Shown here piece by piece: positions 16,553-22,405 of a DNA stretch of 64,000 bases. The translations under genes and the position numbers were made by a program. The notes below the pieces were generated by a model that was not told the DNA's origin, did no database searches, and worked only from the letters and a program-made list of their open reading frames with translations. Positions within the stretch are counted from its first letter, which is position 1. The number at the start of each line of letters is the position of its first letter. The stretch is from Planctomycetota bacterium (GTDB taxonomy: Bacteria; Planctomycetota; PLA2; JAEUHO01), in contig CBDCTJ010000007.1 in NCBI GenBank assembly GCA_965222115.1, forward strand, positions 704,001 to 768,000, written 5' to 3'.

Positions 16553-17542
16553 CTACTTATCAACTTTCAGAGACGTTAGCTGCATATGGGCCTGATCCGC
16601 TCGATAGATCGTGTTATACATCAAGTCGTTTCGCTTTCGAATACCGCTGACGCGATCGCGCAGCTTAGCAACCAAGGATCGATATTTATGCGGATCCCTG
16701 AGGACAATGTCACACTGCGCGAGCACGGCAAGTGGTTCTGATGGGTCAAATACCGGTTGACGTGCAATCCATGTGCGGTGCTCATCAATTTGGCGCTGTG
16801 CGGGTTTCGATTGCTCGAACGAGCCACGCGTGCGGATTGTCTCAAGTTCACTTATGATTCGGGCGCGAATAACCGCTTGGTGCGCAGGATTCGAGGTTTG
16901 AGCGAGTAACGCGAGTAGTCTCTTGACAATCTGCTGGGACTCCCAAATTAGGCCGGGCACGCTGTAAGTGAAGTATCTAGCCTCAGCAACGATGTCGGCG
17001 ACTTTCATATCTATCTTCCATCCAATACACTCCGGGTGCATTGAATGACGCTTGACGATGCCCGATAGTGCTCCCCTTTGTTTAGAGGCCTTTCCGAACA
17101 CCTTGTGGAGCAACGCGCTTGCGGTATGGTAGCTTATGTCAGCTACTTCACTCCTTCGTTCGTGCTGAGGAGTCTTTTCAAGTTGCCTCATTAGATCTTC
17201 ATACTTCTTATGTTTCCATAAGTGGCCGTATAGCTTCCTTTCGCCGGCTATGTTGGTCGGATTGGGTGAGATTGAGCGCTCGTCTTTTGCATACTGAGTC
17301 CATAGTTTGTTGGCAAGTCGCATAAAAGACAAAAGTTCATCTGCGCTATTCGGGGCATCTCGATGCGTGAGGTATGCGCCATCGGGTGCAAGTGCGTAGA
17401 TTTGCGAGAATCCTTGATTTGAAAGTCGCAAATGCAGGAGTCTGCCCTCTTCCGTGGCATCTAGCCCGCCGAGTATCCTAACTGCCACGAACTTGTCGCC
17501 GAATCCTCTCATTTTTAGATCGCAGAACACACGGTCCCGCAT
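16553..17542 (-). CDS. C-terminal half of a thioredoxin-like fold plus helical region; probably the read-through continuation of the TIR-STAND-WD40 gene
   Basis: Same frame as the upstream ORF, with no RBS seen before ATG 17542. It begins mid-Trx fold (MRDRVFCD...FVAVRI...EEGRLL...GFSQIYALAPDG). Confidence 0.6.
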   Translation of the reverse strand: MRDRVFCDLKMRGFGDKFVAVRILGGLDATEEGRLLHLRLSNQGFSQIYALAPDGAYLTHRDAPNSADELLSFMRLANKLWTQYAKDERSISPNPTNIAGERKLYGHLWKHKKYEDLMRQLEKTPQHERRSEVADISYHTASALLHKVFGKASKQRGALSGIVKRHSMHPECIGWKIDMKVADIVAEARYFTYSVPGLIWESQQIVKRLLALLAQTSNPAHQAVIRARIISELETIRTRGSFEQSKPAQRQIDEHRTWIARQPVFDPSEPLAVLAQCDIVLRDPHKYRSLVAKLRDRVSGIRKRNDLMYNTIYRADQAHMQLTSLKVDK

Positions 17543-17548
17543 GAAGAG
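17506..17548 (-). promoter_or_regulatory. Candidate bacterial SECIS hairpin
   Basis: Minus strand after the second TGA reads CTCTTCAT-GCGGGAC-CGTGT-GTTCTGC-gatctaaaa-ATGAGAG. It has a 7-bp upper stem (2 G-U) and a 5-nt loop with G at position 2, 15 and 24 nt from the two UGAs. Confidence 0.45.
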
Positions 17549-20500: not shown

Positions 20501-22405
20501 CTGTTGAGCTTCACGTTGTCGTAACTCTGCGTCGCGACGCTTCTGTTCGGCCTCGCGCCGTCGTTGCTCGGAGGCGAGATGGAGTTCTTCGCGCTGCGCT
20601 TGCTCTTGTTGTTCGGCATCTCGACGCGCAACGGATGCTTGGATGAACTTGATTTCTGAAAGATTGAGCTCAACGTCTTCGCTTGCGATGAGGGCTTCGG
20701 CCTCGGCGAGAGGAAGTCCTGAGGGCAAGAGATAATCTTCATGCCGATGCTGTTCGTGCCACTGAATGCAGTCCGCCTCAACGCTCTCGCGCGTCCGGAG
20801 AAGCTTGCGGTTGTCGTCAAGCCAGTCTGCGAGTTGAGCCCACGAACGAAAGAGCGCTTCGTGCGTGACTTCAAGTGTTCGTTGTGTCCCCTCGCCATCG
20901 CTTACGAGTAGGCGGTCCTCTACGAATCGGTGCAGCCAAGGATGCGCAGCTTGTTCGAAGTTGTCCCATGACTCGATGCGTCGCGTAAACGTTCCATCGG
21001 CGCCTGTTCGTACGAGGCGCAAAAATGCGCGGCGGAGAACACTGAACTCAAGCGAGCCCTGCGGAATGTCGGACACAATCCGAGACGCGGCACTCTCGAT
21101 CGCGCCTTCCATTCCACCAACGCGATCTGTGTAGGCAGCGAGTCGAAGCTGCGTTTCACCATCGCATTGAATGCACTCGTCCCATAGCTTTCGCAGCGCG
21201 AAGGCGAGCAACGGAAGTGCGTGTTTTGCGCTGGCGTCCCGGGCAAGAGCGTCCACAAGTGCAGGTTCCATATCAACGCCGGCCAGTTCCGCGGGCCCCG
21301 CAATGACACGTCGCAGGCTTTCAGGGGCAATGGGTCCCAATGAGAGTTGTTCGCACTCGGCAATGTGCGCAAGCGCCGGGTCGTTCTGAAACTCTCCTAA
21401 GTGATCCGAGCGCAACGTAACGAGTACGCGCCATCCTTCCATCTGCGCCAGTTCACCGAGCAGGTGCAACTGATGTTCGTCTTTTCCGCGGTTCTCGGCG
21501 TGCAGGAGTTCTTCGGCTTGGTCAATCGTAACCAAGACGCGCGCTTGTTGATTGTCTCGTGCGCGCCGCATGCGATCGGCGAATCCACGTAGCACGTCAC
21601 GCGTTGTAACGGACGAGGTATCTCCGAACTCAATCGCGTTTCGAAGTTTCGTTTCCTCGCGCCCGGTATCGAGTCCGTCGCCGGATTTGGCGAGTACATC
21701 TTCGATGGCCTCTACGAAGTTCCCCACCAAACCACCGTGGGGCCGAATGGGCCGCAAGACAATCCAGTGATCTGCATCTTCCTTGAGGCGCGGAAGCAGG
21801 CCCGCACGCACCAACGACGACTTACCCGATCCTGAAGCACCAAGGACGAGCAAGAGTCGTGAAGAACCCAGTTGGCGCATGCGCGTGAGCGCGTCGAGAC
21901 CCGTTCGAATCGACTCGTCGCGACCAAAGAACACTCGCGCATGCTCTTCTTGGTACGCAAGTAGTCCGGGATACGGGGGACGCTGTTTGTTCCATGCCTT
22001 CTCCCTGCCGCGGGAGATGCCAAGTCGATTGAACGAGTTCCATAGGCGGTCGTAGGCGTTTGGGTCTGTATCCAGTTTGATGGCTTGAAGATCGTGAATC
22101 GGTTCCGCGAGCGCTGCATCATCGATGGACAGCGGTATGAGGTTCTTACCAATCGCCCGCGCTTGCGTAATTTCTGCAAAACACCACTTCGACGATGTGG
22201 AGTTCTTGCTATTTATGAATAGCACGACGTCACAAGCTCTGATGCGTTGATACAGCTCGCGCTGCCAATTGACGCCCGCGGGGATACCGTCGCTAGGATG
22301 GAAATCCAGGAAGAGTGAGTCATATCCTTGGGCGGTGAGTCGCTGACGAAGGTCCTTCGCCGCAGCATTGTCTTTGCTGCTGTGACTAATGAATATCTGC
22401 CCCAC
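17558..22405 (-). CDS. TIR - nSTAND1-type NTPase - coiled coil - TM - WD40 repeat protein (NLR-like)
   Basis: GTG 22405 precedes TIR beta-A (QIFISHSSKD) and SKWCFAEI. Then PPYPGLLAY, Walker A GASGSGKSS, Walker B LVTIDQAEEL, ALPLLAFAL, EVTHEALFRSW, a TM (VLGASVVAAVIALGAVLLLY), and about 14 GH...WD-type repeats. Confidence 0.9.
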   Translation of the reverse strand: MGQIFISHSSKDNAAAKDLRQRLTAQGYDSLFLDFHPSDGIPAGVNWQRELYQRIRACDVVLFINSKNSTSSKWCFAEITQARAIGKNLIPLSIDDAALAEPIHDLQAIKLDTDPNAYDRLWNSFNRLGISRGREKAWNKQRPPYPGLLAYQEEHARVFFGRDESIRTGLDALTRMRQLGSSRLLLVLGASGSGKSSLVRAGLLPRLKEDADHWIVLRPIRPHGGLVGNFVEAIEDVLAKSGDGLDTGREETKLRNAIEFGDTSSVTTRDVLRGFADRMRRARDNQQARVLVTIDQAEELLHAENRGKDEHQLHLLGELAQMEGWRVLVTLRSDHLGEFQNDPALAHIAECEQLSLGPIAPESLRRVIAGPAELAGVDMEPALVDALARDASAKHALPLLAFALRKLWDECIQCDGETQLRLAAYTDRVGGMEGAIESAASRIVSDIPQGSLEFSVLRRAFLRLVRTGADGTFTRRIESWDNFEQAAHPWLHRFVEDRLLVSDGEGTQRTLEVTHEALFRSWAQLADWLDDNRKLLRTRESVEADCIQWHEQHRHEDYLLPSGLPLAEAEALIASEDVELNLSEIKFIQASVARRDAEQQEQAQREELHLASEQRRREAEQKRRDAELRQREAQQREREAESRRKEEARLREEAEQRVRARATRIKVLGASVVAAVIALGAVLLLYQKARDSEKRAKRSERVANQYASKEEGLRKSAERARGEAESEKRKAIASTEEALKQRDEAESAKAIAENEREKATQASARERLAKRDAEREKARADALHLAQKAKSKALESQGGSREAVADGLKAVAIGIAREKKPSLEAEVALRLALHRLECAQPLKHHQGFVNHAEFSPDDRHVVTASDDGNATISLARNGAVLGVLDHRGVPVTFAGFCPTGDRIATCCSDGSFRVWNARTLAIISKASLPSGPALHAAFTPDGESLVIVGAGGDVLAWDVTRGQVATKMTGHEKDVVHVACSANGKHVITASWDGTARIWSTDGFLERHVLDDHSASLTCASFSRDGTLTVTSSNDGSARIWNVVTGDEVHSLKVPDSHSPMTWAGFSPNGTFVCTTSENGDVHIWSATSGDLLHRLAGHRGSVDSAAFSYDSGTLATGSSDHTVKLWDTEHGTLVHTFEGHRDRVRSVAFAHSRPEIVTASEDRIARLWRFFDPSQQHELSHHPRSVSSVATSQDGTICAIWSSNATAPFGSRVTIRNTHSGREVGQLSDIKGRIDHCSLSPDGKTIAVLSVVPAHSSAQEKGAGQVDNQIIQIRDTSTGRNLWSRVSKSQSYRTRFSPDGRWLLRIGHDNTATLLSCKDYSSESHAFKMSGYITCEAFSDDGNVLVLGNSHGDVVACSIQKNDNKHREILRANVHRRHIHAISLAPDGSLIAAASEDFTASIIETFNEKTRHYLIGHENRVSDIALSRDKKWVITAGMDKTARVWDASTGAEVLRKSHPSLVVAAEFSSSSNRFITACHDGKVRLWARTTGDLIDTLDGHDKYLRTASFANGSKQVIALSDTVRIWSVDVGDLVSRARDYVGANKGNNFLPPIESRIAPSRLSRKLPRSDFRVRQGRTAKTSLVRFEPTLRLGMKKAKESKQIALVVVSRYNPP

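Follow-up and report, generated by a model that had tools for sequence, protein, structure and literature searches.

A planctomycete TIR-nSTAND1-WD40 receptor gene with two in-frame UGA codons and a candidate selenocysteine-pair thioredoxin module

The stretch of DNA analysed here (hereafter the window) comprises 64,000 nucleotides (nt) from an uncultured planctomycete (Planctomycetota bacterium; assembly GCA_965222115.1, contig CBDCTJ010000007.1, positions 704,001 to 768,000 of the forward strand). Within it, one minus-strand gene encodes a TIR-nSTAND1-WD40 receptor whose frame runs through two in-frame UGA codons into a thioredoxin (Trx)-like domain and a helical tail of the tetratricopeptide repeat (TPR) type. 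Judging from sequence comparison, both UGAs are probably read through as selenocysteine (Sec, U), giving a UxxU pair in a functional protein. The features of the gene are as follows.

16553..22405 (-): whole read-through gene, 1950 residues and a TAG stop; another possible GTG start lies at 22720
22043..22396 (-): TIR domain, N-terminal effector, probably cytoplasmic; Pfam TIR_2, 74.7 bits (cut-off 28), residues 109-226 of P0001
20738..21976 (-): nSTAND1 STAND NTPase; PF20703, E 1.2e-85, 288.9 bits (cut-off 27.1), residues 249-661
20351..20407 (-): single hydrophobic, transmembrane-like helix VLGASVVAAVIALGAVLLL; Kyte-Doolittle 19-residue mean 2.73
17831..19903 (-): WD40 repeats (Pfam), enough for two beta-propellers, probably extracytoplasmic
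17273..17665 (-): divergent Thioredoxin_7-like domain with UPTU motif; 14-sequence alignment, Pfam matches of relatives, AlphaFold2 and Foldseek
17558..17560 (-): first in-frame UGA, at the place of the N-terminal redox Cys; U or C in homologs
17549..17551 (-): second in-frame UGA, at the place of the C-terminal redox Cys; C in most homologs, U in two paralogs of another genome (G022)
17521..17541 (-): hairpin resembling a selenocysteine insertion sequence (SECIS), UGCGGGAC-CGUGU-GUUCUGCG, 8/8 pairs, its start lying 16 nt past the first UGA and 7 nt past the second
16556..17272 (-): all-helical TPR-like tail, homologous to the tails of a family of free secreted Trx-TPR proteins

Results

Two UGA codons are the sole breaks in a frame of 1950 codons

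On the minus strand the junction reads ...tac aac ccg cca TGA cca acc TGA ctc ttc atg cgg gac..., and the open reading frames (ORFs) on its two sides, 17558..22720 (-) of 1720 residues and 16553..17542 (-) of 329 residues, lie in the same frame. The preliminary description of this DNA, made from its letters alone, had taken these ORFs for one frame broken only by the TGAs at 17560-17558 and 17551-17549 and encoding a single protein of about 1950 residues. Both points were borne out by reading and translating the strand: translation from 22720 to 16553 departs from table 11 of the genetic code at two steps only, U1721 and U1724 (counted from GTG 22720), and the two TGAs are the sole breaks in the frame 22405..16556 (-), which yields 1950 residues from the GTG at 22405. 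This GTG was taken as the start because the gene caller's upstream product is 1615 residues long; the preliminary description starts the gene there too. Beyond the second TGA, 331 codons follow without a stop, for which triplet frequencies give a rough chance of ~3e-4, and coding periodicity is kept there, with G+C at the three codon positions of 0.58/0.40/0.53 as against 0.64/0.47/0.58 upstream. Both TGAs are also present without any difference in independent Logan contigs from three runs (X1, X2 and X3). A single study supplied all three, X1 and X2 from one of its samples and X3 from another, and one of these runs is possibly the source of the assembly. No RNA run was listed as containing this stretch.

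The N-terminal 1600 residues form a common receptor backbone

The order of TIR, nSTAND1, coiled coil, membrane helix, WD40, Trx and helical tail, as originally proposed for this gene, is confirmed by Pfam, AlphaFold2 and hydrophobicity. The Walker A stretch GASGSGKS is visible in the nSTAND1 translation, and the helix VLGASVVAAVIALGAVLLL sits within a long charged coiled-coil region, with the NTPase on one side and the WD40 repeats on the other. The repeat region gave ten Pfam WD40 stretches (227 bits) together with many beta-propeller families across residues 940-1630. With an effector before nSTAND1 and a repeat array after it, the protein belongs with the effector-bearing nSTAND1 NTPases; in a paper on targets of diversity-generating retroelements (PMC10907252), nSTAND1 proteins figure as putative STAND NTPases of conflict systems, bearing sensors at the C-terminus and a TIR or peptidase domain as effector.

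At E<=1e-20, 5581 homologs of the upstream ORF were found, with a typical length of ~1370 residues, and ordinary members of this backbone family end after the WD40 repeats. Among the 119 best of the 5581 homologs, 80 have a transmembrane-like segment (at about residue 555-700 among those listed), and neither the Trx module nor an extension past an in-frame UGA occurs in any of the 119. The TIR-nSTAND1-transmembrane-WD40 arrangement, which accounts for the whole of the window protein's N-terminal 1600 residues, is the common backbone, and the Trx(UxxU)-TPR module is the one unusual addition. The preliminary description knew of no such architecture, and what sets it apart is the added Sec module. 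The receptor is not a member of a named defence system, since PADLOC gave matches at the level of the TIR domain only (ThsB-like and SpbK, 18.7-33 bits) and the NCBIfam model of Thoeris ThcB4 scored 53 bits against a cut-off of 220; beyond the shared TIR domain, no match to a named anti-phage system was found with PADLOC or NCBIfam.

The C-terminal module is of the Thioredoxin_7 type

The module was assigned to a family through its relatives. In a 14-sequence alignment, Thioredoxin_7 (PF13899) is matched by 13 members, that of the window being the exception, Thioredoxin_2 (PF13098) by 11 and TPR families by up to 10; the peroxiredoxin-like PF00578 is absent from the 25 listed of the 29 families that the 14 members matched at E<=0.1. 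P34, G67, G96 and the two redox positions are among the columns that do not vary. The UGAs divide the Trx fold, with its first 35 residues encoded upstream of them and the remainder downstream. AlphaFold2, run on the module with this alignment, returned a model with a predicted local distance difference test (pLDDT) score of 86.8 and a predicted template modelling (pTM) score of 0.77. Its strands and helices follow the thioredoxin order (strand 24-30, motif 36-39, helix 37-46), the redox pair stands at the start of helix 1, and eleven helices come after the Trx part. Foldseek ranked DsbH (2ju5, E 3.2e-4), Escherichia coli YbbN (3qou, E 4.7e-4) and DsbD-gamma highest in the PDB, the last with a target template modelling score (TM-score) of 0.68-0.74; just three matches had E<=0.001. 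By model and alignment, the junction holds a domain of the Thioredoxin_7 type, though a divergent one, with a TPR-like tail behind it, in keeping with the Trx fold that had been proposed for it; at the level of families the match is made only by the other 13 of the 14 members.

Relatives carry selenocysteine or cysteine at the redox pair

The junction plus tail was searched for in 60 related genomes besides the window's own, 28 of them of the same family and 32 of other families. Relatives were found in 10 of the 28, and no match was found in the 32. Across the 14 matched places, nine carry one TGA, three carry two and two carry none. They fall into three groups. The first consists of proteins of ~400 residues (open frames of 440-455 codons) with signal-peptide-like N-termini and a TGA at the first redox position, sharing the pattern FLYFGR..P.UPPC..LE.RVFS...SDKFVAV.LLGG.DLDDEG..FM.RYGV.G[FY]PT. 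The second comprises two genomes (G009 and G020) with CPGC and CPAC at the same place, and the third the two G022 genes, which read NCYKPP-U-FL-U where the window reads SRYNPP-U-PT-U. All relatives that bear names are metagenome-assembled genomes called 'Planctomycetota bacterium'.

A hidden Markov model of the Trx part, run over all fetched loci, retrieved 49 distinct domains, of which 26 have U at position 1 and 23 do not (mostly CxxC). At position 2 the relatives mostly have C, and U occurs in three genes, the window's (UPTU) and the two of G022 (UFLU). The homologs that the preliminary description had proposed to consult thus show U or C at the first site and C or U at the second. When 401 genomes were sampled evenly across the phylum, strong matches fell at 31 places, of which 3 have two TGAs, 18 have a single TGA, 1 has a TAG and 9 have none. 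The three UxxU modules, the window's and the two of G022, form one clade (support 0.79) in a FastTree tree of 23 modules; this clade is separate from the free UPPC family and is placed, without support, beside a kinase-linked module and two CxxC modules.

Close relatives of the window's own module were sought among homologous proteins of near length, by region with long candidates and in genome contigs, and the window itself was all that was found. In metagenome contigs, patterns derived from the alignment likewise returned only the window, these patterns having Cys codons at the Sec sites so that Sec forms could not match, and a degenerate DNA pattern for Y-[KN]-P-P-U-x-x-U-x-x-M-R-D gave 0 matches.

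The free UPPC family matches curated NCBIfam selenoprotein models (TsoB, Trx7/PDZ) weakly, and one curated NCBIfam selenoprotein model was matched weakly by 7 of the 14 members (best E 5e-5). Members of this Trx7-TPR family with one TGA were seen in many genomes across several families of the phylum. One of them, a free signal-peptide-type UPPC selenoprotein with the same SECIS hairpin, is encoded in the window's own genome (contig C1, 30998-32125). Two CxxC relatives (L039 and L041) have ORFs of 507 and 624 residues. A 1512-residue open frame in another genome (G002) was rejected as spurious, high G+C having kept it open around a secreted UGPC protein of the ordinary kind.

Two paralogs in another genus keep both TGAs, and related modules occur in three settings

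In G022, a genome of another genus, two genes (L026:2294-5221 (+) and L027:1896-4883 (-)) are complete ORFs of 975 and 995 residues when their TGAs are read through. Each encodes, in order, TIR_2, a hydrophobic helix, a Pro-rich linker, Glucodextran_B/Ig-like domains, a UFLU Trx domain and a helical tail. Identity between the paralogs is 51% over their whole length, with the part past the UGAs included, and both TGAs are kept in each. Two paralogs so diverged, each with both TGAs and an intact downstream frame, are hard to reconcile with nonsense mutations, and frames with two in-frame TGAs such as these would be split by gene callers. On a stricter first look, the full G022 architecture was found in G022 only and its TIR type was widespread in the phylum with other C-termini. 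The same TIR type (about residues 5-195 of the query, <=50% identity) was also seen at loci L098-L106, in several planctomycete genomes, in ORFs of 230-1080 codons; with the remainder not matching the query, these loci suggest a family of TIR proteins with variable C-terminal parts.

Two further homologs have degenerate redox positions. In genome G014 (L090:2520-5249 (-)), a Ser/Thr kinase, cut by the contig end, is followed by a transmembrane helix, Ig-like domains, a Trx-like domain with a degenerate CPPM and a TPR tail. G022 itself also encodes a secreted Trx-TPR homolog (L088; C409:4500-9000, plus strand, frame 2) that has lost both redox positions (..REPDELTGR..) and is redox-dead. The module accordingly has three settings. 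Some copies are free proteins whose N-terminus resembles a signal peptide; the others follow a membrane helix, either on TIR proteins or on a kinase. Such a distribution would be expected if a module for binding or sensing outside the cytoplasm were coupled to cytoplasmic outputs that can be exchanged, and the context of the related modules points to an extracytoplasmic sensor.

A SECIS-like hairpin accompanies the selenocysteine forms in a fixed register

In the Sec forms of the module, the hairpin begins 16-17 nt past the first UGA. We compared all forms in a fixed register, pairing +19..+26 with +32..+39 from the first UGA and counting a hairpin where at least 6 contiguous pairs ran from the loop. 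Such a hairpin was found in 21 of 26 Sec forms as against 1 of 23 non-Sec forms, with means of 6.7 and 4.3 pairs out of 8, respectively (Fisher p 4e-8, a value inflated by relatedness); the five Sec forms that miss this register have hairpins in a shifted one. When 23 Sec forms were aligned free of gaps, 92.4% of cells were paired, 5 of the 8 pairs had changed on both sides, and none of 500 shuffles equalled this, while slid registers gave 41-67% pairing. Relative to the UPPC consensus, the window's hairpin has C-G for G-C at one pair and G-U for A-U at others, and the G022 genes have A-U and G-C at the pairs where the window differs. A G at loop position 1 or 2 is not discriminating (24 of 26 Sec versus 18 of 23 non-Sec forms). 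The E. coli fdhF element has a spacing of 11 nt, to which the 7 nt from the window's second UGA come close.

The genome encodes the selenocysteine machinery

The genes for Sec incorporation, selA, selB, selC and selD, are all present in the window's genome, which is 90% complete, answering the question of machinery raised by the preliminary description. One match to the tRNA-Sec model exceeded the threshold (71.6 bits), and ARAGORN calls it tRNA-SeC with anticodon UCA. Across the whole genome ARAGORN found 50 tRNAs, with no second UCA, tRNA-Trp with CCA only and one ordinary 74-nt tRNA-Cys(GCA); the next seven matches to the tRNA-Sec model were examined and are Ser, Leu and Gly tRNAs. A code-wide reassignment of UGA was rejected on the strength of the CCA-only tRNA-Trp, the single UCA tRNA, and the single TGAs that homologs and the relatives' SelD show at known Sec sites. 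Both selA (480.7 bits) and selB (346.6 bits) are over cut-off and free of stops. The selA and selD genes are one locus split across C1:654443-655637 and C7:1-1329, and contigs C1 and C7 could be joined. In G022, tRNA-Sec is present, selA is cut by the contig end and selD was not found; selD adjoins selA in three genus-mates of G022.

Surroundings of the gene

Across window positions 16500-19000, which hold the end of the WD40 region, the Trx domain and the tail, G+C is 0.51-0.54, compared with 0.59-0.60 in the flanks; this low-G+C 3' third of the gene may be a recently acquired or fused segment. On one side lies a metallo-beta-lactamase-fold hydrolase (14698-15900 (-); Lactamase_B_2, E 1.4e-48). 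The neighbouring ORFs 15975-16526 (+) and 22559-23977 (+) match no Pfam family, and the latter, of 472 residues, overlaps the 5' extension of the large frame (22406-22720). No recognisable defence partner was seen among these three adjoining ORFs.

Discussion

Likeness to known proteins

The closest likeness to the window's module is to the free Trx-TPR proteins of the same planctomycete class, which are of the Thioredoxin_7/Thioredoxin_2 'thiol:disulfide interchange' type with UxxC. Trx part and TPR-like tail are homologous (31% identity over 261 residues, query 25-285, E 3.5e-24), U stands at the first redox position in both, and the SECIS hairpin is the same and in the same register. The free proteins differ in having ~400 residues, signal-peptide-like N-termini, UPPC and a cis-Pro, whereas the window has a fusion to a 1600-residue receptor, U at both positions and Ser. 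E. coli YbbN/CnoX has the same two-part layout of Trx and TPR; there is no sequence-family match, and the whole-model TM-scores are low (0.21 and 0.27) because the PDB targets each cover one part of the model. CnoX is cytoplasmic and has no CxxC motif.

SelL and other peroxiredoxin (Prx)-like thiol:disulfide oxidoreductases share with the window a UxxU on a thioredoxin-superfamily fold, and differ in being small stand-alone proteins of the peroxiredoxin-like PF00578, as opposed to the PF13899 and PF13098 matched by the window's relatives. SelL reportedly forms a diselenide. The preliminary description had given SelL as the known bearer of UxxU. A table in a 2026 review of prokaryotic selenoproteins (PMC13188914) does list UxxU, and UxxC, for Prx-like thiol:disulfide oxidoreductases, and it also lists UxxU for a metal-binding protein and the FmdB family, and a second paper of 2026 reports 16 UXXU group 4 hydrogenases (PMC13582414); the motif is therefore not confined to SelL. 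The genes of these [NiFeSe] hydrogenases resemble the window's in that their two UGAs, spaced three codons from each other, precede one SECIS-like hairpin, which the same paper proposes to serve both (PMC13582414). They differ in that the motif binds metal in the large subunit, which neither has a Trx fold nor is a signalling protein.

The review presents the selenoproteins of prokaryotes as enzymes that serve anaerobic respiration, metabolism and redox balance, and in that paper 'TIR' and 'defense system' have 0 occurrences and 'immun' occurs once, about eukaryotes (PMC13188914). Titles and the opening lines of abstracts yielded no paper on selenocysteine with a bacterial TIR or STAND protein, the papers returned being on animal and human immunology and medicine. 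Nor, by titles and the opening lines of abstracts, was such a protein found in literature on selenoproteins with TPR, thioredoxin and Planctomycetota.

A read-through receptor and the points that weigh against it

That Sec is inserted at both UGAs and that the protein so made is functional has, in our view, a probability of about 0.8. In such a reading, one gene would encode a single-pass membrane protein resembling the NOD-like receptors (NLRs), in which SelB and tRNA-Sec would decode both UGAs by means of the one hairpin just downstream, giving a U-P-T-U motif capable of forming a diselenide. The TIR and NTPase domains would lie in the cytoplasm, and the WD40 repeats, Trx domain and TPR tail outside the membrane. 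The Trx(UxxU)-TPR module could then act as a redox-responsive or thiol-trapping sensor, the state of which would be relayed by way of the membrane helix, so as to affect how the STAND part oligomerises and how active the TIR domain is. Termination at the first UGA would yield a shorter receptor like the ordinary members of the backbone family, and selenium supply could set the ratio of the two forms.

Several observations weigh against this reading. The window's own 382 residues around and after the UGAs match no Pfam family at E<=1 and no NCBIfam family, and the cis-Pro column, which is Pro in 13 of the 14 aligned members, is Ser in the window (GFSQ), a replacement that the preliminary description had already seen. 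The UxxU pair is confined to three genes in two genomes among 29 genomes of the family, and to the same among 40 of the class. Because no close relative was found, the window's two UGAs lie beyond an ortholog test, and the depth of reads over them is low (~3 to 5.6). Part of the conservation of the hairpin is due to coding, since it overlaps the conserved peptide E-N-R-V-F-S, and the folding energy of the 96-nt region is no better than that of its shuffles (z 0.04); with folding of the whole region unremarkable, we relied on the fixed-register comparison. That one bacterial SECIS can serve a pair of UGAs spaced 9 nt from each other stands in print as a proposal without experiment, in the hydrogenase paper (PMC13582414). 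We infer the topology and the sensor role from hydrophobicity and domain context.

The last point of this kind concerns selD, which is over its cut-off and has five TGAs and one TAA inside the match. One of the TGAs is the known Sec site of SelD (GG-U-AAK), making this a Sec-type selD, and SelD with exactly one TGA was found in six relatives. The remaining breaks, all of them brief slips of frame, fall within the final 1.2 kb of contig C1, and we read them as assembly errors at the contig end because the C-terminus of selA there is also shifted and because the final 328 nt of C1, which overlap the start of C7, contain four one-base insertions (in C1). A selD pseudogene was set aside for the same reasons, there being no mismatch to C7 besides the four insertions.

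Alternative explanations

It is very improbable that the gene is decaying, with two TGC/TGT-to-TGA nonsense changes in a former CxxC fusion and the downstream 331 codons an untranslated relic. The window's module is an orphan at close range, with no ortholog to show selection, it has lost the cis-Pro, and the redox-dead homolog in G022 shows that the family does lose the motif. Decay would nevertheless have had to strike, among 1950 codons, at precisely the two redox positions and nowhere else, and leave the downstream frame open with its coding periodicity; it also sits poorly with the eight pairs of the hairpin and their compensatory changes relative to the UPPC family, with the double TGA kept in two paralogs at 51% identity, and with a TGA at position 1 in 26 of the 49 related domains. 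Normal termination is an improbable account too. The functional product would here be the 1615-residue TIR-nSTAND1-transmembrane-WD40 protein, the rest being made rarely or never, or separately from the ATG at 17542. Ordinary family members of ~1370 residues do end after WD40, with the Trx module in none of the 119 best of 5581 homologs, and bacterial Sec insertion is inefficient, so that two sites would multiply the loss. The UGAs, however, split the Trx fold such that neither piece is a complete domain, a product from ATG 17542 would miss the first strands and any export signal, and the hairpin and the G022 paralogs favour read-through. There is barely a chance that one or both UGAs are read as Cys or Trp, by a tRNA-ReC-like or a near-cognate tRNA, to give CxxC, UxxC or CxxU. 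The hydrogenase paper raises this idea, tRNA-ReC-like tRNAs being enriched in genomes with UXXU hydrogenases (PMC13582414), but among the 50 tRNAs found here tRNA-Sec is the sole one with UCA, tRNA-Cys is a single 74-nt tRNA with GCA, tRNA-Trp has CCA, and the next seven model matches are Ser, Leu and Gly tRNAs; a missing tRNA is possible because the genome is 90% complete.

Given read-through, the role of the module is a separate matter. That it acts as a sensor and not as a tethered enzyme we hold only tentatively, at somewhat less than even odds. It is rather unlikely that it is instead a tethered periplasmic oxidoreductase or chaperone, DsbH- or CnoX-like, that maintains or folds the outer part of the receptor or a partner. 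The best structural matches are indeed the oxidoreductases DsbH and DsbD-gamma and the Trx-TPR chaperone YbbN/CnoX, and the free secreted UPPC family keeps its cis-Pro and looks like an enzyme. The window's loss of the cis-Pro speaks against an enzyme, as does the attachment of the module to three different cytoplasmic outputs, and the persistence of degenerate modules (CPPM on the kinase, DELT in the free protein) fits binding or sensing better than catalysis. The fullest form of the sensor reading, in which the extracytoplasmic Trx-TPR module would serve as a diselenide/selenol switch gating a transmembrane TIR-STAND receptor for cell death or immunity and selenium supply would decide between a plain and an extended redox-sensing form, is unlikely as a whole.

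Implications

On the evidence of its sequence, the protein combines a TIR-STAND receptor of a common kind with a module that belongs, as a UxxU form, to the Thioredoxin_7 lineage of selenoproteins. If both UGAs are read as Sec, selenocysteine would have been recruited into a signalling or immunity-type receptor of 1950 residues, with the Sec pair ~1600 residues along the chain, and a UxxU pair could arise in the Thioredoxin_7 lineage on a SECIS that already served a UxxC ancestor. The arrangement of UGA, 6 nt, UGA, 7 nt and hairpin forms a natural cassette that bears on whether one bacterial SECIS can serve two adjacent UGAs, a question that the hydrogenase work leaves open (PMC13582414). Bacterial STAND/TIR receptors would, by the same token, be able to bear redox-active sensors outside the membrane. 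Should the gated-switch reading also prove true, this would be the first bacterial selenoprotein to act as a signalling receptor, and the first NLR-like protein with selenium-dependent sensor chemistry.

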